A stretch of 33,968 nucleotides of DNA from a virus: the IMG/VR virus record IMGVR_UViG_3300034375_008105; one strand, 5' to 3'. The notes under the pieces were generated by a model. The model saw nothing but the letters and a program-made list of their open reading frames with translations. It was not told where the DNA came from and did no database searches. Position numbers and translations under genes: made by a program. Shown here piece after piece: positions 8,464-33,968 of the stretch (position 1 is its first letter; the number at the start of each line of letters is the position of its first letter).

Positions 8464-8913
8464 TTACCCTTTGTTTAGTATTACGCCTGACTCAACAAAG
8501 CCCATGCGCTTGTATAGTTCTACAGCGCTATCACCGGAATCGCCAGTGGTAACGCCAACGGAAATCTGATCCTCTCGCACACCGCAGCAGATAGACCAGT
8601 CAATAAATGTCTTAACCAGCTTAAATGCATGGCTTCCGCCTCGATTCTCGGGACGGACATACAAAAGCAAGTCAAAGGACTTAAGTGTTGGCCCAAAGTA
8701 ATGTTCCTGAATCATACCAAAGAACATACCTACAACCTTGCCATTCACCTCAGACACCCAAGCCTGCATGTGCGGCTGTTGAATTAGGTTAACACACAGC
8801 TGCGCAACCTTTGCCGGGCACCACTCAGTCACCGCGTAGCTAGAATTGCTGTACATATCATACCCCATTTCAAGAATCGCCGGGATATCGTTACCATTAA
8901 GCTCTCTAATCAT
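8464..8913 (-). CDS. GNAT-family N-acetyltransferase, 149 aa.
   Basis: Motif A VRPENRGGSHAFKLV and motif B LYKRMGFVESG. Confidence 0.75.
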   Translation of the reverse strand: MIRELNGNDIPAILEMGYDMYSNSSYAVTEWCPAKVAQLCVNLIQQPHMQAWVSEVNGKVVGMFFGMIQEHYFGPTLKSFDLLLYVRPENRGGSHAFKLVKTFIDWSICCGVREDQISVGVTTGDSGDSAVELYKRMGFVESGVILNKG

Positions 8914-13189: not shown

Positions 13190-14023
13190 TTAGGATACAA
13201 GGTCGCTTTGAGCCAATTCGCAGAAGATGCCACAACTGATGTCCGACTCGGCCTCATAGCTGCCTGCGTCTTTAGGCAGCTCTCGCAATGTTGGACGCCA
13301 ATACTGCTTTTCTAAGGGCTCGTCAGTTGCTATCAGGTGTCGGACTTTATCAGGATAGCGCTTTAGTGCCTGGGGCATTCCAATCTTGCACACCGTTCGA
13401 CCGAGATGCTCTTCCATCATAGCCATTCTTTCGTAGGCTTCTGGGAAATCGACACGTATCTTGTTCCAGTATCCTGCCTCACCCTTAACGCATCCGATAC
13501 AGTTGTTGTTCTTATACCCGAGCTTATACATGGCAGGTAGCTCGATGCCCTCTTTTGCCAAGAGAGCCAGGCAGTCCTGCTTAGCCAGGCCTTTGTCAAT
13601 CAAGGGAGCCCAGATATCAACATCGTTGTTGGCATCGATAAACTGATCAACACGACGCTGCTCTTCGACGGTATAGCCGAAAACCTGCCGATCACCTGGC
13701 TGTTCAAACTGCTTGCGCATACCTTTCTTCAGAAGCCTTGTGCAAGCAGCACCAGATGGGCCTTTTAGAAATCGCTCCTTGCGGAACACTTCGTAAATAG
13801 ACGCCTCGTATTTATGATTTCCGATTATCTGAATCTCTTGTCCAAACCACTTCTCGCACTCAGATAGGAACCTGGAATTGTCGGGATGCTCTTCACATAC
13901 TTCTGTGTATGCAATTACCAGCGGCAGCTTTTCATTCTTGTTGTTATGAGCAATGGCAAGCTTTGTAGCTACAGCAGATGCAGCCCCGCACGAAAACCAG
14001 CAGACAATTCTCTCATTACTCAT
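13190..14023 (-). CDS. PAPS-reductase-like protein (adenine nucleotide alpha-hydrolase superfamily), 277 aa.
   Basis: N-terminal VCWFSCGAASAV PP-loop-like motif, plus C-terminal cysteine pairs CIGC and CGIFC. Confidence 0.7.
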   Translation of the reverse strand: MSNERIVCWFSCGAASAVATKLAIAHNNKNEKLPLVIAYTEVCEEHPDNSRFLSECEKWFGQEIQIIGNHKYEASIYEVFRKERFLKGPSGAACTRLLKKGMRKQFEQPGDRQVFGYTVEEQRRVDQFIDANNDVDIWAPLIDKGLAKQDCLALLAKEGIELPAMYKLGYKNNNCIGCVKGEAGYWNKIRVDFPEAYERMAMMEEHLGRTVCKIGMPQALKRYPDKVRHLIATDEPLEKQYWRPTLRELPKDAGSYEAESDISCGIFCELAQSDLVS

Positions 14024-14944: not shown

Positions 14945-15352
14945 CTACTCACCACCTTTTAGCTTATCTGTGTTGCTGGGTAGCAGTACTGTAGGGAGTT
15001 CTACTTTTGTAAATTTCGCATACTCTTCAGGGAACGCCTTCTGTAAATTCTCAACAAGGCTTTTCGCCTGATCTTCAGTAGCTCTATCAATCGCAAAATC
15101 CATGACCTTAATATAATCGTCTCTCGGCACCAGCACATAGCCCTCTGGTGGGGTGTCGTGGTTATTCTGCGCCGCTGCCAGATCGTCTTTCAGCCTGGCT
15201 ATCTCTGCGTCCTTCAGCATCAGGCTTTGCTGATCCACCGTGCTATGTGTTTCGATAGCCTCACGGACCAAGTTAATAACACCCTGGGCGTTTAGCTGGC
15301 TATCTGGTAGCGATGCCTCAAGGTCGTTTAGGTAGTCTTCTAATGCGCTCAT
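14945..15352 (-). CDS. Hypothetical acidic protein, 135 aa.
   Basis: ORF track. ATGA overlap with the upstream gene. Confidence 0.55.
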   Translation of the reverse strand: MSALEDYLNDLEASLPDSQLNAQGVINLVREAIETHSTVDQQSLMLKDAEIARLKDDLAAAQNNHDTPPEGYVLVPRDDYIKVMDFAIDRATEDQAKSLVENLQKAFPEEYAKFTKVELPTVLLPSNTDKLKGGE

Positions 15353-15540
15353 TTCCTAATCCCCATATCCATAATTAGCAGCAAACCACTTGCCGCAAAA
15401 CATACAAATCCAATATTTAATCTACGCCCACTTACCGGATATATTCCCCAGCCTATCAAGGGCGCCCCTATCATCCCCAATACTACACTCGCATATAACA
15501 TCTGCTTACTTCTTTGGTTAGTTAGGTGCCCCGGACCCAT
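15349..15540 (-). CDS. Small two-TM membrane protein (63 aa, or 50 aa from the internal ATG).
   Basis: Hydrophobic [19 protein letters not shown] and [13 protein letters not shown]. Overlaps the 3' end of the pentapeptide-repeat gene. Confidence 0.45.
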
Positions 15541-16165
15541 CTACCAGAACCGCATCGCGCAGGTTGGCATCGCGCAGGTTGGCATCGCACAGGACGGCAC
15601 CGCGCAGGTTGGCACCCCACAGGTCGGCATCGCGCAGGTCGGCATCGCACAGGTTGGCACGGCACAGGTCGGCACCCCGCAGGTCGGCACCCCGCAGGTT
15701 GCCACCGCGCAGGTCGGCACCGCGCAGGTCGGCACCGCGCAGGGTGGCACGGCACAGGTCGGCACCCCGCAGGTTGGCACCGCGCAGGTTGGCATCGCAC
15801 AGGTTGGCATCGCACAGGTTGGCATCGCACAGGTCGGCATAGCGCAGGTTGGCACCGCGCAGGTTGGCATCGCACAGGTTGGCATCGCACAGGTCGGCAT
15901 CGCGCAGGTTGGCATAGCGCAGGTTGGCATAGCGCAGGTTGGCACCGCGCAGGTTGGCACCGCGCAGGTCGGCATCGCGCAGGTTGGCACCCCGCAGGAC
16001 GGCACCGCGCAGGTCGGCACCGCGCAGGTCGGCACCCCGCAGGTTGACACCGCGCAGGTTGACACCGCGCAGGTCGGCACCGCGCAGGTCGGCACGGCAG
16101 CCGCCGTCTTCACCGTTAAGCCACTTATTATGCAGCTCTAATACTTCTTTAATATCAATATTCAT
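15518..16165 (-). CDS. Pentapeptide-repeat protein, 215 aa: a 22-aa cap, 37 uninterrupted pentapeptides, then an 8-aa tail.
   Basis: Translation reads [R/C][G/D/Y]A[D/N]L x37, for example [23 protein letters not shown]. The N-terminal cap [22 protein letters not shown] is typical of the family. GGTGAG SD. Confidence 0.9.
15545..16099. repeat. Tandem array of 37 copies of a 15-bp unit (plus-sense consensus about cgcgcaggttggcac), coding for the pentapeptide repeats.
   Basis: Visible periodicity in the raw sequence. All six frames are open across it, which accounts for the six overlapping ORFs in the track. Confidence 0.9.
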
Positions 16166-16269
16166 AATCTCACCAAAGATTTAGTTTAGCTGGTTGCCCC
16201 GACTGCTTTGCTGGGGCGGTATTGCGATGGCCGGTCAGCTCTTCGACGGCGGCTCTCCAACCACCGGTA

Positions 16270-16479
16270 TTAAATCTTGTTGCGCTCCAAAAACTCATCA
16301 AGCAATCCGTGATCAAACAGCATCAGCGCCATTTCAATCAGATTCTCACCGTATTGTGGAACGCCTGGCGAAGACTTCCAGCGAGTAACCGTACTTGCAT
16401 CTACACCAATCAACCGGCAAAACCGGGCATGGGTTAATCCTAGCTTGGCCCTTGCCGCCTTAAGCTGTTCGAACGTCAT
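16270..16479 (-). CDS. Small HTH DNA-binding protein, 69 aa.
   Basis: LGLTHARFCRLIGVDASTVTRWKS is an XRE/Cro-type HTH. AGGAGAG SD. Confidence 0.6.
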   Translation of the reverse strand: MTFEQLKAARAKLGLTHARFCRLIGVDASTVTRWKSSPGVPQYGENLIEMALMLFDHGLLDEFLERNKI

Positions 16480-16942: not shown

Positions 16943-17256
16943 TTCATCCCCTCGATTTTAATTACACCCATCTCAACCAGCTTGCGCCAGGTTCTCACCA
17001 TAGCCCGCCGCATGTAGTTTTCTTTGTCTGCTGGTTCCAGATAATGCTTTACCCGGCCATCGATTACAGAGTGGCAGTTATCACAGGCAAAGCAGGCGCT
17101 GATATCGTCAGACTTACGCCCCATTCCGTGGCTTTCATCCGGTAGGTGGGCCAGCACTACTGTGCTTGTGTCGTAGCTGCATACGCCTACGATCTGGAGG
17201 GTGCATTGCTGGCCTCTGGCCGCGTCTCTGACTTTCTTCGATACGATCTTAAGCAT
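16939..17256 (-). CDS. YbcO-like (DUF1364) putative zinc-binding nuclease, 105 aa.
   Basis: AARGQQCTLQIVGVC...VLAHLP...CFACDNCHSVIDG pattern. Confidence 0.65.
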   Translation of the reverse strand: MLKIVSKKVRDAARGQQCTLQIVGVCSYDTSTVVLAHLPDESHGMGRKSDDISACFACDNCHSVIDGRVKHYLEPADKENYMRRAMVRTWRKLVEMGVIKIEGMK

Positions 17257-17722
17257 ATTCCATCATCCCATTTACTACCCTTTCCATTTCGCTCTCTGTC
17301 CAGCCCTGAACATGGCGCATTACCATCTTCCAGAGAACGCTAAATGCTGCCCGGTATAGCTCCTCAAACTGTGCATCATCCATGTTCCCAAAACTGATTG
17401 ACTTGGGTACCAGCTGCACATCGCCCTTGAGGTTCGACACCACATCATAAAACCCGGCCATTACCGTCACGTCGCTACGGAACTTTTCGAAATTCTTTTC
17501 TGTAGTACGGCCCTTGTACTCACCCTTTGGCGGCTCCCAGTACTCATAAGCCATATTCAAAAGTGAGAAGAATTTGCGGTGAAACTTGATGTTTCTAGCC
17601 TTCACCAGATCCGCCCGTATCTCCTGACCTGTTCGCAGAGACTGAATATACTCCAACCCCTGCTGATCTACAGGCACAAGGGTGTTGTGATTACCCTTGC
17701 GCAGTATTACCTGTTTACTCAC
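17249..17722 (-). CDS. DUF1367-like lambdoid nin-region protein (157 aa from the GTG at 17722).
   Basis: GGAGG 7 nt upstream of the GTG, in a GTGA overlap with the upstream stop. KARNIKFHRKFFSLLNMAYEYW motif. Confidence 0.6.
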   Translation of the reverse strand: MSKQVILRKGNHNTLVPVDQQGLEYIQSLRTGQEIRADLVKARNIKFHRKFFSLLNMAYEYWEPPKGEYKGRTTEKNFEKFRSDVTVMAGFYDVVSNLKGDVQLVPKSISFGNMDDAQFEELYRAAFSVLWKMVMRHVQGWTESEMERVVNGMMEYA

Positions 17723-17898
17723 TGCCACACCTCCGCCAGTTCCTTTTCCATTCTCCGCGCTTCCTGGTGATCCTCTACCGTTCTGCGCCGATAGCATTCA
17801 CGCTTCTTTTCCGGCGATATCTCTTTAGGGATTACTACACGCTCTGGGTTAGTGATTACGAATTTGTGCTTGTATTCCGGGGCTGATGTAATGCTCAT
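17719..17898 (-). CDS. Hypothetical protein (59 aa from the ATG at 17898).
   Basis: TAATG overlap with the upstream gene. The track start at 17940 lies inside the upstream gene. Confidence 0.45.
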   Translation of the reverse strand: MSITSAPEYKHKFVITNPERVVIPKEISPEKKRECYRRRTVEDHQEARRMEKELAEVWQ

Positions 17899-18270: not shown

Positions 18271-19635
18271 CTACAAATTAAATCCGCGACGCTGCGGCTT
18301 TGGTTTTTCAATTACTGGCAATGGCCCGTCAAATACTGCAAACCGGTTTTCTGCACCGATAAAGTTTAGAAAATCAGTACCCTTTTCGCCGTCTCGAAAC
18401 TTGGCTGTGATCAGTTCAGCAATACCCCGGAAAGGCGTGTCTTCGTTGTACACCTCATCCCTGTAGATAAACTGGATTACATCGGCGTCCTGCTCAATCT
18501 GCCCAGACTCACGAAGGTCTGACAGGATAGGCCGCTTGTCTGCCCGCTCTTCAACCTTTCGGCTTAGCTGAGACAATGCGATTACTGTGCAGTCCAATTC
18601 CTTAGCCAGCGCCTTAAGCTTTCGGCTAATACTGGACACCTCATCGAATCGGTTTTTGCACTGGCGATCCGTCAGCAGCTGAAGGTAATCAACCAGAACC
18701 AAATCTAATCCGCTTTGACGCTTCTCACGACGGCAGCGGGTGCGCAATTCGTTCACATCCAAACTGGCCTGATCATCAATTTTAATGCTGGCCTTCGTTA
18801 GCTTATGAACAACATGAGTTAATTTATGCGCCTGCTCGTCGTCAGATAGCACCTCAGCGCTTTTTAGGAGTGACAGCGGTATCTTGCCTATGTATGCAAA
18901 TAAACGCTGCGTGAGCTGTCTGGCTGGCATTTCTAGGCTTGAGATATAAACCTTGCCGCCAGCTAATCCGATATTTGCCGCCCAATTCATAGACAAAGTG
19001 GTCTTACCCATGGCAGGACGAGCAGCAACAACATAGAATTCACCGCCTTTCAGGCCCTGCAACCGCTCATCAACGTTAGTCAGTCCGGTTTCCAGTCCGT
19101 GAATGCCCGGGTTTTCATGACGGTATTCAAGAAAATCGAGATAATCCTTAACCGCTTCGACAGTGCCTATCGCCTTATCGCTGCTTGGGCCTTCATTGCC
19201 AGCGGCGGTTATGATTGCTTCCGCCTCCTGCAAGCGCTCATCGGTGTTCATGCCGTCAGTCATTAGAACCTTTTGAGCCTCAACCAGTCCGTTGAACAGA
19301 TCACGCTCCTTTGCAAACCGGATGATGATGTTAGCCCATCCCTTAATGTTTGCAGCGCTTGGCGTGTTCTGCATCAGGTCGATCACGTAATCCATGCCGC
19401 CTATATCTGCGAACAGCTCGGAATCCTTTTCTTCCAAGAATTCAGACAGGGTGATCATGTCAACAGGATGGTTCATTTCCTGCATTGCGCAGATACCGTC
19501 AAACAGTGTCCGGCTAGCCAGGTCGTAAAACATGCTTTCAGTTAACAGGCCATCAATCTCATCGTATGACTTTGGCTGAAAGATCAATCCGCCTACTACG
19601 CCTTGCTCTGCTTCGATAGAAAATAGCTCTCTCAT
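18271..19635 (-). CDS. dnaB: DnaB-type replicative helicase, 454 aa.
   Basis: N-terminal EAEQGVVGGLI, Walker A ARPAMGKTT, Walker B LVLVDYLQL, and the SGQIEQDADV motif. Confidence 0.92.
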   Translation of the reverse strand: MRELFSIEAEQGVVGGLIFQPKSYDEIDGLLTESMFYDLASRTLFDGICAMQEMNHPVDMITLSEFLEEKDSELFADIGGMDYVIDLMQNTPSAANIKGWANIIIRFAKERDLFNGLVEAQKVLMTDGMNTDERLQEAEAIITAAGNEGPSSDKAIGTVEAVKDYLDFLEYRHENPGIHGLETGLTNVDERLQGLKGGEFYVVAARPAMGKTTLSMNWAANIGLAGGKVYISSLEMPARQLTQRLFAYIGKIPLSLLKSAEVLSDDEQAHKLTHVVHKLTKASIKIDDQASLDVNELRTRCRREKRQSGLDLVLVDYLQLLTDRQCKNRFDEVSSISRKLKALAKELDCTVIALSQLSRKVEERADKRPILSDLRESGQIEQDADVIQFIYRDEVYNEDTPFRGIAELITAKFRDGEKGTDFLNFIGAENRFAVFDGPLPVIEKPKPQRRGFNL

Positions 19636-20591
19636 AAACTCCCCTCTACTACCTGCTGGACCGTTTTCTTTGAAATTATGTAGTCGTAACTAACGACTAT
19701 CCCAGCGTTGTTGTTTCCCTTGTGCCAATCAGTGGCAGATCCAAAGAAGTATTTAAAATACTCTCGTACCTTATCGTTGCTTTTCCCCATCAGATAAAAG
19801 AATGCCTTAGTGTTGGTCACACGGTTATCATCTACAACAATCTCAACAGGCCTGAATGGTTCAACCACTTCTTCGTTATAAATACTAACCACATCAATTA
19901 CATCTTGATCGGTGTCCGTGGACCAGTCTTGACTAAAGTGTTGGTCAGGCCCAAAGAACGTCGCAGCCATCTTCACAAAGTTAGTTCCAATGCTTCCTTC
20001 CTTTTCACAGAAGGCTAGATATTTTTCTGTTCCGACTTTCATATCGACCCAAGTGCTACCTTCTTTAATTCTTGCAAGGCAGGCTGAATAAGTTTTTTTC
20101 TTATTGCTACCGCCTTTTCGTTTTGGATAGATGGCCCAAATGTTTTCGAACTCATCACAATATTTATTACCTTCTTTTCCCTTATTACATTCTTGTTTGT
20201 GTACCGCCTGTTGTCCGCCTGTTGTACCGCCTGTTGTACCGCCTGTTGTACCGTCTGTTGTACCGTCCCCCTGAAAAGCCTCGTAATTACATATACTTAT
20301 GACGCTAGTTAGGTGTCCCGTTTCCTGAGCAATCATACCGTCTTTTTCAAGCTGCTCTAAAAACCTTCTAACCTTTCCTCTTGACCATTTCCACGTCTTC
20401 GAAAGGGTTATTTCTGAACGTGCCTGCTGACCTCTTTTAAGCTCAACAACCGTACTCTTAATAGATATTTTACGGTCCGTATGGCCTGCATTAAGAATGA
20501 GGTCCACCCATGCTTGCCCTTTCGAAAAAGGCTCAGAAGACCATAACCAGTGGTCAGCAATGCCGCGATGTAGTTTGATCCATCCAGCCAT
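19632..20591 (-). CDS. Replication initiator: an N-terminal winged-HTH domain, a GTT-repeat linker and a C-terminal domain (319 aa from the ATG at 20591).
   Basis: MAGWIKLHRGIADHWLW... is typical of phage DnaD/O-like initiators. ATGA coupling to dnaB. GAGG SD at 20605-20602. An alternative GTG start lies at 20618. Confidence 0.7.
   Translation of the reverse strand: MAGWIKLHRGIADHWLWSSEPFSKGQAWVDLILNAGHTDRKISIKSTVVELKRGQQARSEITLSKTWKWSRGKVRRFLEQLEKDGMIAQETGHLTSVISICNYEAFQGDGTTDGTTGGTTGGTTGGQQAVHKQECNKGKEGNKYCDEFENIWAIYPKRKGGSNKKKTYSACLARIKEGSTWVDMKVGTEKYLAFCEKEGSIGTNFVKMAATFFGPDQHFSQDWSTDTDQDVIDVVSIYNEEVVEPFRPVEIVVDDNRVTNTKAFFYLMGKSNDKVREYFKYFFGSATDWHKGNNNAGIVVSYDYIISKKTVQQVVEGSL
20201..20266. 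repeat. Five and a half tandem copies of a 12-bp unit (plus-sense gtaccgcctgtt). Iteron-like, inside the initiator gene.
   Basis: Units at 20201, 20213 (11 bp), 20224, 20236 and 20248 (one mismatch), plus a partial unit at 20260. They encode GTTDGTTGGTTGGTTGG. The AT-rich stretch 20150-20200 is adjacent. Confidence 0.85.
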
Positions 20592-20599
20592 GCTATAAT
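20591..20599 (+). promoter_or_regulatory. Extended -10 promoter element TGCTATAAT, antisense to the initiator translation-start region.
   Basis: Perfect TGnTATAAT on the plus strand, 24 nt upstream of a plus-oriented intrinsic terminator. Confidence 0.4.
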
Positions 20600-20605
20600 T
20601 ACCTC

Positions 20606-20652
20606 GTTTTTGACTCACTCTTAGCCCGTCCTAGCCGACGGGTTTATTTTTT
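20606..20652 (+). ncRNA. Candidate cis-antisense RNA of about 45 nt (oop-like), ending in an intrinsic terminator.
   Basis: Hairpin CCCGTC (20625-20630) / GACGGG (20637-20642) with a 6-nt loop, then TTTATTTTTT (20643-20652). The T-run is on the plus strand only. Confidence 0.35.
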
Positions 20653-32253: not shown

Positions 32254-33968
32254 TGTTCGACGCTCCCGGACTGGAATATATCGAACCCGCTAGGCTGATC
32301 GACAGCAAGCTCAGCCCAAGGAATGATGAAAGGGTTGTTATTTGTATCGAAAATAGCATTACCATTTTGGTCAACAAACAAAATACCATCCCCGTCAGGG
32401 CTTGTTATAGGCGTAGGCCTCAACGCAGATAGATAAACCTCCTCTCTGTCTTCAGGGTTTACAACTTGGCTAGACTCCGGGACTCTTAAATTAAACTCCC
32501 CCGCCTTGATTCGATCTAAGGCATTATCTATCCCTAACTCAACATTATCAGCATTTACCTTAGCCGGTACTCTATAAGTATCTTTAAACGTAAATCGAGA
32601 ATCTAAAACATCAGCCTTTGCTTGATTTATGGCGTCGCCAGTATCATCAAATACACCATCAGCCATGTATTTCATTGATAGAGTTTCTATGGCTGTTTTA
32701 TGCTGGATAAAAGCCGCCTCAGCTCCTGGTTGCCCTCTCAGAGTGCTCTGAAAGTCTTCAAGCTCCTCTATTGTATCGGCCTTTATATCCTTAAAATTAT
32801 CATCCCCTATAACCTCTTTATAGGTTTTCTGCGGTAATGATAACGCCTCACTTAGCCTTACAGCCTCAGGCCCAAAATCCATGCCAGCCAGTACGCGAAG
32901 CCCGGCACCCATTTTAATATTACTTTGTAACTGCCTCTGAACCGCTGTCCACTCTGAGCCGAAAGCTGTTTTCATGGAATCGATTTGTAACACCACATTT
33001 TTGCCGCCTTGGCTGAAGTCATTCAACACTGAAGCAAAGTTGTTCTCTAACTCCTTTGGAAGTAATTGCACACCAGCGGGTTTTACACCCAAGTCCTCTT
33101 GAGATGTTCTCTGTATAGCCGAGAATTCTTGTGCAGCCTGATTTATTGCTGCTTGATCACCGGACTGAAGCGCATTAGTTAGACTTTTAAATGAATCTTT
33201 TGCTAGGTCGCTGTTATTAATTACATACTTCGAAGGATCTTCAGCAATAGCCTTATTTCTAACTTTGATAGCCCCATCGAGAATAGCTAACTGCCTGGAC
33301 TCGCGACGAAACTCCTCTTGGCCTTCAGGCGTCTCTCGCTCCACTATGGCCGCCAGCTCTTTAGTGCTGGCTGTTTTGATCTCATTTAAAGTATTGCCGA
33401 AGTCGCGAGCATCCTTTATTTGCTCATTTATTGCGCCGCCCTGCTCACCAAACACAGCAGAAACATTGGTCGGACTAAACTTCTCTGATAAATCTTCGCT
33501 ATCCTTGCCTGATGATAGAAACGCCACATAATCATCAAGCGCTGAAGCAAATTGTTTCTTTTGAGCTGCGCCTCTCTGTTTTATATCAAGCTCGGCTGCT
33601 GACATAATCCGGCCCAACGTATTAGCGTCTGTAAGCTGATCCCACTTCCCATCCTTAATCTCAGAGATTACAGAAACGGAATCACCAGATTTAATGCGCC
33701 CACCTAATGAGCTGGATACGATTTGATTAAAGGTAGACGTCCTTAGCTTGTCGATATCAACAACACCCCCGGCAGTCTCTTCAAGGCCAACAATAGCAGC
33801 CTCAGCCCTTGCCACCGCTTCAGGCACACTGGTTCGTCCGGCTAATACTTCGGATTGAATATCATCTAAACCGCTTTGCGCAGAGTTAACCCGTCGCTGT
33901 ACGTTTAAGTTTGACTGGTGGCGTGTATACCCGGGAAAGAACTTGCGACTAAAAGCGTTATCAGCCTG
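32250..33968 (-). CDS. C-terminal part of the 687-aa wrap-around gene. The N-terminal part is 444..1.
   Basis: The track M at 33827 is an internal GTG (Val). The frame stays open from 33827 up to 33968, which I checked codon by codon for 33825-33869, and is in phase with 444..1. Confidence 0.8.
   Translation of the reverse strand, partial: QADNAFSRKFFPGYTRHQSNLNVQRRVNSAQSGLDDIQSEVLAGRTSVPEAVARAEAAIVGLEETAGGVVDIDKLRTSTFNQIVSSSLGGRIKSGDSVSVISEIKDGKWDQLTDANTLGRIMSAAELDIKQRGAAQKKQFASALDDYVAFLSSGKDSEDLSEKFSPTNVSAVFGEQGGAINEQIKDARDFGNTLNEIKTASTKELAAIVERETPEGQEEFRRESRQLAILDGAIKVRNKAIAEDPSKYVINNSDLAKDSFKSLTNALQSGDQAAINQAAQEFSAIQRTSQEDLGVKPAGVQLLPKELENNFASVLNDFSQGGKNVVLQIDSMKTAFGSEWTAVQRQLQSNIKMGAGLRVLAGMDFGPEAVRLSEALSLPQKTYKEVIGDDNFKDIKADTIEELEDFQSTLRGQPGAEAAFIQHKTAIETLSMKYMADGVFDDTGDAINQAKADVLDSRFTFKDTYRVPAKVNADNVELGIDNALDRIKAGEFNLRVPESSQVVNPEDREEVYLSALRPTPITSPDGDGILFVDQNGNAIFDTNNNPFIIPWAELAVDQPSGFDIFQSGSVEQ
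33870..33968. repeat. Right copy of the 99-bp terminal direct repeat.
   Basis: Identical to 1-99. Confidence 0.95.

Follow-up and report, generated by a model that had tools for sequence, protein, structure and literature searches.

A bare pentapeptide-repeat gene of an estuarine podovirus whose 15-bp units number from 13 to 37 in near-identical genomes

The virus record IMGVR_UViG_3300034375_008105 is a stretch of 33,968 nt (hereafter the window, meaning this whole stretch). Its first and last 99 nt (1-99 and 33870-33968) form an exact direct overlap, and the genome is thus circular and complete, ~33,869 bp in length, and stems from an assembly of the k=99 type. The phage is a roughly 33.9-kb marine/estuarine podovirus, and on the minus strand of its genome lies the gene considered here, which encodes a pentapeptide-repeat protein (PRP). 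The open reading frame (ORF) starts with ATG, preceded 3-8 nt upstream by the motif GGTGAG, and codes for 215 aa. A 22-aa N-terminal cap is followed by exactly 37 pentapeptides in perfect 5-residue register and without interruption, and just 8 residues (VDGSGAPN) separate the last of them from the stop codon (coordinates in Table 1). ORF listing and unit dissection both confirm this architecture, which an initial annotation had read from the letters alone. The evidence shows a genuine protein-coding accessory gene for a "bare" PRP β-solenoid, and its repeat number differs from one near-identical genome to another.

At the DNA level the pentapeptides form an array of 555 bp, in which TRF finds a period of 15, 36.3 copies, 87% matches and 0 indels. 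The consensus unit, CGCGGTGCCAACCTG, encodes RGANL, and individual units depart from it at 0-3 positions (the last unit at 5; mean 1.7). GC content amounts to 0.68 in 15501-16000 and to ~0.41-0.51 (about 0.47) in the adjoining 500-nt windows, in agreement with the GC-rich array originally described. The motif proposed for it, [R/C][G/D/Y]A[D/N]L, is general and has exceptions. Ten units carry Cys (TGC), as had been counted and attributed to CGC/TGC changes, and one carries Trp (TGG), at the position elsewhere occupied by Arg (CGC/CGG). Further, "CR" occurs in three units, Val or Gly replaces Ala in three, and Val or Thr stands at the D/N position in four. All six reading frames had been taken as open; in fact four are free of stops across the array, including all three of the coding strand, and the remaining two, both on the plus strand, are interrupted by 3 and 2 stops.

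Codon choice in the array is practically frozen. Leu is encoded by CTG in 37 of 37 cases (23% genome-wide), Ala by GCC in 33 of 34 (20% genome-wide) and Asn by AAC in 19 of 19 (53% genome-wide); Asp is always GAC at i-1 and always GAT at i+2. This is a signature of recent duplication or concerted evolution of units, as had been supposed from the low divergence between them. The 64 nucleotide differences from the consensus are very unevenly spread. None of them affects the Leu codon, and the Ala and Leu codons together hold 4, against 40% expected (p ~9e-10). Only 8 of the 64 fall on third codon positions. The polymorphic sites are nonsynonymous transitions (CGC/TGC, GGT/GAT and GAC/AAC) at three outward-facing residues. 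Because the differences avoid the Ala and Leu codons and fall on outward residues, the core of the solenoid is conserved and its surface is variable.

Further alleles of the array were recovered through look-ups of two identical flanking proteins, the 135-aa product downstream and the 69-aa helix-turn-helix (HTH) product upstream, each of which returned about 20 contigs from Delaware/Chesapeake estuary samples. The 135-aa protein is identical on 20 contigs, and most of the 10 inspected begin in or just past the array; the HTH protein is identical in at least 22, and most of the 10 inspected end in the array. The contigs inspected thus mostly break off in or at the repeats. Those that run through them (contigs and loci are designated by L and a number) contain 13 units (L003/L177 and L005), 14 units (L180), 18 units (L013/L185), 23 units (L010) or 37 units (the window and L178). 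Partial haplotypes with at least 30, 20 and 11 units have unit orders of their own. Altogether, at least seven different haplotypes of the array share flanks with 99.4-100% identity over 4-6.5 kb, which bears out the expectation that repeat number would differ among related phages. The cap is identical across every allele recovered, and cap, tail and reading frame are unchanged in all complete alleles, apart from one silent single-nucleotide polymorphism in the tail of L180.

The short alleles look as if the long allele had lost one or two internal stretches between identical units. Assembly collapse as the sole cause of short alleles can be ruled out. Firstly, L010 and L013 hold units or unit orders that are not present in the window, so that the collapse of one sequence does not explain them. 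Secondly, the longest exact repeat inside the array measures 52 nt, less than the 99-nt assembly overlap, and the path through the array is therefore resolvable. Thirdly, the 37-unit form was assembled twice: L178 is an independent JGI assembly from another sample, and its 37-unit array differs in one unit.

The counts of 13, 14, 18, 23 and 37 units fall into mod-4 classes 1, 2, 2, 3 and 1. There is thus no mod-4 constraint on the alleles, and the relative rotation of the solenoid ends is not conserved. Variation of this kind is found also among the 120 best homologues, where groups with identical termini cover 20-24 and 24-30 units, one unit at a time. The [R/C][G/D]A[D/N]L alphabet is common to these homologues, with frequencies at i+1 of 0.55 for R and 0.19 for C. 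The 215-aa product itself is absent from the exact-protein look-up records; scanning viral contigs with the cap DNA gave 0 matches, and scanning metagenomes with the tail DNA gave 1 contig only.

The protein is a clear member of the pentapeptide-repeat superfamily. Against PF00805 (Pfam) it scores 215.4 bits, where the gathering threshold is 20.2 (E=3.7e-65), and its 37 contiguous A(D/N)LXX units exceed the eight that define membership; it also matches phrog_7713, a family annotated as of unknown function (E=2.2e-74). An AlphaFold2 model built from the single sequence predicts a helix at residues 5-16 that caps a continuous quadrilateral β-solenoid over residues 26-206, with one beta-bridge per 5 residues, or about 9 coils in the 37-unit allele (mean predicted local distance difference test, pLDDT, 81.4; predicted template-modelling score, pTM, 0.74). 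In a Foldseek comparison with PDB all of the top 50 matches are PRPs. Synthetic consensus solenoids (best template-modelling score, TM, 0.80), Np275/276 and HetL rank on top, with QnrB1, MfpA and AlbG lower; matches in BFVD are uncharacterised PRPs of phages and giant viruses. PF00805, AlphaFold2 and Foldseek therefore agree on the right-handed quadrilateral β-helix that the initial annotation had assigned, as a predicted fold. The closest solved structures, the synthetic "beta1" series (4yc5, 4yfo, 5dns) and Nostoc Np275/Np276, have a sequence E of 2.6e-39 and TM up to 0.80 and likewise consist of near-consensus A(D/N)LXX units without loops. They differ in being designed or cyanobacterial proteins whose two ends are both capped, whether by engineering or naturally, and they carry no functional information.

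Counted from sequence, the net charge of the protein is -1 (pI 5.9), with +3 in the repeat body and -3 in the cap; coils 1-3 have +2 each, and coils 4, 5 and 8 have -2, -1 and -2. The surface is thus Arg/Asp-mixed and not strongly acidic, as had been noted. Instead of the single Cys ladder that had been envisaged, the Cys residues are grouped in coils 4-6, on two neighbouring faces. Two more specific family assignments were rejected. Membership in the Alr5209 "equivalog" is suggested by a score of 195.8 above the cut-off of 125, which arises because five repeat matches to a model of 113 positions are added up. CefA (NF038108), a ribosomally synthesized and post-translationally modified peptide with Cys at every fifth position, scores 27.8 bits, below its threshold of 30, and only over residues 84-126 of the 215-aa protein; against this assignment there is also no radical S-adenosylmethionine or maturase gene near the PRP gene. 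The run of CDANL units at 15788-15916 of the window, which nearly reaches the CefA threshold, we judge to be a coincidence of repeat pattern. Among the PADLOC-DB defence models, no family matched the PRP at E<=0.01.

What sets the protein apart from most of its relatives is its C-terminus. A C-terminal domain of at least 60 aa is present in nearly all top homologues and in ~75% of the 74 related proteins from IMG/VR, whereas the window protein ends 8 residues past the last repeat in every allele. At least four types of this domain can be told apart: DUF5758, the P22-like "PDLTFVILGEKYF...GCQNHT", "RIDGSTYEG.CA" and "ALDM.SWHTCDTTHC". "Bare" PRPs of cap and solenoid are a minority of ~10-15% (for example L034, L069, L074 and L094). 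With two-domain phage PRPs (cf. P0049, P0029, P0026) the protein shares a helical "L..H..W(L/I)...G" cap directly before the array and repeat variation in single-unit steps, and it differs from them by the absence of their ~65-125-aa C-terminal domain. In general, the "L..H..WL...GG" type of cap recurs in many phage PRPs. Pfam finds PF19062, which is DUF5758, in homologues and not in the window protein. AlphaFold2 models the DUF5758 domain as a beta-rich module of ~110 aa (pLDDT 90.6). A Foldseek search with the full-length model of a DUF5758 protein was swamped by matches to the solenoid, a search with the DUF5758 sequence against PDB gave nothing, and our literature search retrieved no paper mentioning DUF5758.

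Several known phage genes resemble the one described here. The DUF5758 (PF19062) phage PRPs P0049 and P0029 have the cap closest to that of the window protein (MDIKEILKKHKMWLNNEIGG). PRPs of this type share its unit alphabet, including many Cys, and its variation by single units, and lie in replication or DNA-modification neighbourhoods; again, their C-terminal domain is absent here. The P22-like orf232 family (ST64T orf-232, phage L orf232, ST104 ORF19, epsilon34 gp42 and g341c gp37) shares the unit CGC-GGT-GCC-GAC-CTG with 83-91% array identity, the helical "L..H..W" N-cap and the R/C dimorphism. Its members differ in having 15-24 units, an ~85-aa C-terminal domain of the PDLTFVILGEKYF...GCQNHT... 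type and a location outside the nin region, in the PL operon, where ral and gene 17 flank them. Phages L and ST64T, which are >99.9% identical, are one 15-bp repeat apart in orf232 (PMC8022706). An even larger change is known from the Caulobacter Riverwalk cluster, where the near-identical phages RW and GB2A differ by an in-frame PRP deletion of 375 bp (25 x 15 bp) (PMC11053796). A large change in repeat number is thus viable there, although this is another phage group, which we liken to ours by description only.

The closest parallel to the array as such is Gp01 of Yersinia phage fEV-1, likewise a near-perfect pentapeptide array of ~35 x 15 bp, with 34.5 repeats by the published count, in a gene at which a short-read (NGS, next-generation sequencing) assembly failed too and whose function is likewise unassigned (PMC8309999). 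The novelty implied by the initial annotation was therefore overstated. The fEV-1 gene differs by its codons (GCA-AAT-CTG...), by its product of 279 aa and by its host phage, a dwarf myovirus of Yersinia; peptides of the product were detected in a phage preparation, and length polymorphism within a population was not reported (PMC8309999).

The CGC-GGT-GCC-GAC-CTG unit, with the same position-specific codons, recurs in ST64T orf-232, in Edwardsiella phage PVN06 and in two metagenomic phages. The flanks of these two are unrelated, and in each case the array lies 10-26 GC points above its locus. (The loci compared with the window array for the shared unit were L001, L002, L015 and L016.) L014 (CGT-GGT-GCA-GAC-CTG) and fEV-1 (PMC8309999) spell the same peptide pattern with other codons, so that the protein pattern is the conserved feature. 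Sharing of the DNA unit among some lineages could be due to a horizontally exchanged cassette or to codon-level selection.

The genome around the gene is a mosaic of structural genes of the HTVC010P podovirus type (~47% aa identity) and lambdoid early genes. Tail tube B is only ~47% identical to that of HTVC010P-type pelagiphages, and DnaB is at most 39% identical to that of any cultured phage. Neither an integrase nor a tRNA nor an Rfam match was found in the window. A scan of genome contigs returned mainly cyanobacterial PRPs (~50-60% identity) and nothing homologous to the cap, and a 44-nt match to Alteromonas phage PB15 falls in a hypothetical gene and is uninformative on the host. The minus-strand gene order is Ant-like, O-like initiator, DnaB, NinX, NinB, YbcO, RusA-like, the 69-aa HTH gene and the PRP gene, followed by a small hydrophobic ORF, the gene for the 135-aa protein, a PAPS (3'-phosphoadenosine-5'-phosphosulfate)-reductase/SspD-like gene, TerS and TerL. 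The gene was thus correctly placed between an HTH gene and a small membrane-protein-like ORF, in what is a lambdoid PR-type delayed-early region and not a "leftward" operon. No promoter-like or terminator-like site was found on the minus strand in the spacer and PRP flanks, and the fold of the upstream spacer, considered as a possible regulatory RNA, is not significant (z=-1.5). Given this and the position after the replication and nin genes, the PRP gene probably shares a transcript with the delayed-early replication/nin operon, and its product, for which no signal peptide was predicted, probably acts in the cytoplasm; both points we infer from gene order and sequence features.

Table 1. Positions of the PRP gene, its parts and its immediate neighbours in the window
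Feature	Positions	Strand	Evidence or remark
Complete PRP gene, 215 aa + stop	15518..16165	(-)	ORF listing, PF00805, phrog_7713, AlphaFold2 β-solenoid
N-terminal cap, 22 aa	16100..16165	(-)	AlphaFold2 helix at residues 5-16
Array, 37 x 15-bp units, [R/C/W][G/D/Y/R]A[D/N]L; hypervariable part	15545..16099	(-)	Unit dissection, TRF, position counts
C-terminal tail VDGSGAPN + TAA stop	15518..15544	(-)	No C-terminal domain, no helix
HTH-to-PRP spacer, 104 nt	16166..16269	(-)	Holds GGTGAG ribosome-binding motif, 16169-16174
Upstream 69-aa Xre-type HTH gene	16270..16479	(-)	Weak HTH_31, HTH_3 and PHROG transcriptional regulator matches
Downstream hydrophobic ORF, 50 aa from ATG 15501; predicted membrane protein	15349..15501	(-)	Grand average of hydropathy 1.13; no family match (Pfam, PHROG)
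Downstream conserved 135-aa protein, anchor for allele recovery	14945..15352	(-)	No family match

Other PRP loci have comparable surroundings. In ST64T the gene lies between ral and gene 17, and elsewhere it stands beside C5 or Dam methylases or PAPS reductase. A census of the genes directly adjoining viral PRP genes, 126 in all, yielded scattered methylases, HTH, HNH, PD-(D/E)XK, DnaB, RecT, Rad52 and Thy1 proteins and one Tad6. Nine of the 126 (loci L017-L096, IMG/VR) are PRPs themselves, so that PRP genes in tandem, or single genes called in separate pieces, are not rare.

We suggest the following explanation for these observations. The array gains and loses whole 15-bp units by replication slippage or by unequal recombination between identical units, and this produces near-identical genomes with 13 to 37 units in differing order. 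The variation between units lies almost wholly on the outward residues R/C, G/D/Y and D/N, with the inward Ala and Leu kept nearly invariant. As for the mode of action, the most likely one would be protein-protein binding through the repetitive, near-neutral Arg/Asp/Asn/Cys surface. The solenoid could then serve as a multivalent rod or decoy for a protein of the host or of a rival element, plausibly a DNA-handling one, and the number of repeats may tune avidity instead of setting an exact shape. The location of related PRPs in early, replication or DNA-modification regions is consistent with such a role. For the explanation as a whole, that is, a bare solenoid varied by slippage that acts as a cytoplasmic multivalent binding rod or decoy and not as a Qnr-type mimic, we estimate a probability of about 0.5.

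There are several points that weigh against it. Our literature searches did not find a phage PRP with demonstrated function, and the neighbour census contained no conserved partner gene and hence no hint of a target. Tolerance of 13-37 units, together with the viable 375-bp deletion in GB2A (PMC11053796), fits a dispensable or near-neutral gene equally well. The depletion of differences in core codons could in part reflect the shuffling of a few old unit types and not ongoing purifying selection. Finally, metagenome assemblies of tandem repeats can mix strains, and individual haplotypes may be imperfect.

These points lead to the main rival explanation, by which the gene is a nearly neutral passenger or the decayed remnant of a two-domain PRP that lost its C-terminal effector domain, the array being sustained by slippage and by the stop-free coding strand. 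We consider this unlikely on balance, if worth serious attention. The prevalence of the C-terminal domain among related viral PRPs would fit such a loss, as the coexistence of 13-37-unit alleles, the deletion tolerated by GB2A and the lack of a conserved partner gene would fit neutrality. Yet the complete alleles agree in cap, tail and frame, the start codon and ribosome-binding site are intact, and the core Ala and Leu codons are largely spared by the variation. Moreover, bare cap-plus-solenoid PRPs recur in other viral contigs, and no remnant of a C-terminal domain is seen downstream of the gene in the ORF listing or by Pfam.

A further possibility, which we regard as rather doubtful, is that the array is a slippage-driven generator of diversity. 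Units from the small alphabet (R/C, G/D/Y, D/N) would be added, removed and reordered, so that the phage population would keep producing solenoids that differ in length and in surface code, and selection would act on this standing variation. It would then be a contingency locus for an anti-defence decoy engaged in an arms race with a host protein of defence or DNA processing that it binds or that senses it. Such a locus would be distinct both from diversity-generating retroelements and from Qnr-type mimicry.

The initial annotation had drawn an analogy to Qnr, MfpA and AlbG, and a topoisomerase effector of this type has to be considered: the solenoid would mimic a T-segment, bind the clamp of host GyrB/ParE and modulate or protect gyrase during infection. 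The fold is the same, the 37-unit allele falls within the 180-220 aa size class, QnrB1, MfpA and AlbG are among the structural matches, if below consensus PRPs, and the gene lies within a DNA replication module. Phage-encoded gyrase inhibitors do exist, though they are not PRPs (PMC10886550). Beyond fold and size, however, the analogy fails. In hidden Markov model comparisons with NCBIfam, the protein scores 67.8 bits against 240 for Qnr, 66.6 against 360 for MfpA, and 42-58 against 425-500 for QnrA, B, C, D, E, S and VC. Gyrase-targeting PRPs are all head-to-head dimers through a C-terminal helix (PMC8145042), and the AlphaFold2 model has no helix past residue 16. With 37 units in register and 0 indels, there is room neither for the Qnr loops A and B nor for a bulge, and the near-neutral charge given above is not the electronegative surface of a DNA mimic. 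Compared with Qnr, MfpA, AlbG and EfsQnr, the window protein thus lacks the dimerisation helix and the loops, scores 3-5 times below the family cut-offs, is near-neutral and varies in length. A range of 13-37 units in any mod-4 class is hard to square with a shape-specific mimic, and this three-fold length polymorphism argues against the precise DNA-shaped mimic that had been suggested. Membership in the Qnr/MfpA class is rejected, since every family feature that we tested is missing. A DNA-handling enzyme as target is compatible with the data, and an effector of the gyrase clamp seems to us improbable.

Very improbable, too, is that the protein is virion-associated or ejected, i.e. packaged and delivered with the DNA. 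It is true that fEV-1 Gp01 was listed among "phage particle associated proteins" after liquid chromatography-tandem mass spectrometry (LC-MS/MS) of purified phage (PMC8309999), and the window protein has a weak PHROG match to the tail-fibre family phrog_28766 (7e-07). In the fEV-1 preparation, however, 240 host proteins and 56% of the phage's gene products were present as well (PMC8309999), so that detection there was not specific. In the window, the gene is part of the early replication/nin block, away from structural genes, and has neither a signal peptide nor a recognisable partner from a structural module.

That the DNA array itself is functional, as a recombination hotspot, protein-binding array or structural DNA with an incidental ORF, is hardly credible: almost invariant third codon positions, a shared unit in GC-rich arrays of unrelated phages and four open frames out of six would agree with it, but fEV-1 and L014 use other codons for the same peptide repeat, the array always sits inside an ORF with a matching helical cap, the variation follows the inward and outward positions of a solenoid, and the fEV-1 protein is translated, as detected by LC-MS/MS (PMC8309999).

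The gene in the window is a further example, with a domain-less architecture, of a kind of phage gene that is already recognised. PRP genes are common in phage genomes, yet for none of them has a function been established. In marine viral data, long reads show a 26-fold enrichment of PRPs over assemblies; because PRP arrays break short-read assemblies, PRP genes are under-represented in viromes (PMC9238414). A practical warning is that contigs of the present phage usually stop at the array, and that repeat numbers read from assemblies should be confirmed by long reads. On the other hand, the alleles offer a clean natural series, one gene in near-identical genomes with 13, 14, 18, 23 or 37 units in which no C-terminal domain confuses the comparison, which is convenient for asking what the solenoid itself does and what effect its length has. 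If the variation is selected and not neutral, repeat slippage would join the known ways in which phages diversify their host-interaction proteins.

The same operon is polymorphic at two other places. A DUF6948 gene (87-90 aa) directly downstream of the PRP gene is present or absent among genomes that are otherwise at least 99.4% identical; it occurs in L003 (5607-5870), L004, L006 and L010 (394-666), and the window is without it (between 15501 and 15518). NinB/DUF1367, at 17249-17797 (-), is a single 182-aa ORF in the window and in L179, and is called as two genes of 59 and 157 aa in L003 (3564-4213), L178, L180 and others.

Three more genes of the window may be mentioned. The PAPS-reductase/DndC/SspD-like protein (277 aa, 13190-14023 (-); phrog_424, 1e-45; PADLOC SspD, 1.8e-13) is encoded between the nin-like genes and the terminase, and PRP genes of L016, L015 and Edwardsiella phage PVN06 adjoin PAPS-reductase or DNA-methylase genes. 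The O-like initiator ORF (19632-20618 (-)) contains 5.6 tandem copies of the 12-bp sequence TGTACCGCCTGT at 20200-20265, which, by analogy with lambda O, P22 gene 18 and phage L gene 18, are probably origin iterons (PMC8022706). An acetyltransferase-like gene at 8464-8913 (-) (phrog_1249, 1.5e-27) lies between the large terminase and portal genes, and in records of HTVC010P-type pelagiphages an acetyltransferase is annotated beside tail tubular protein B.

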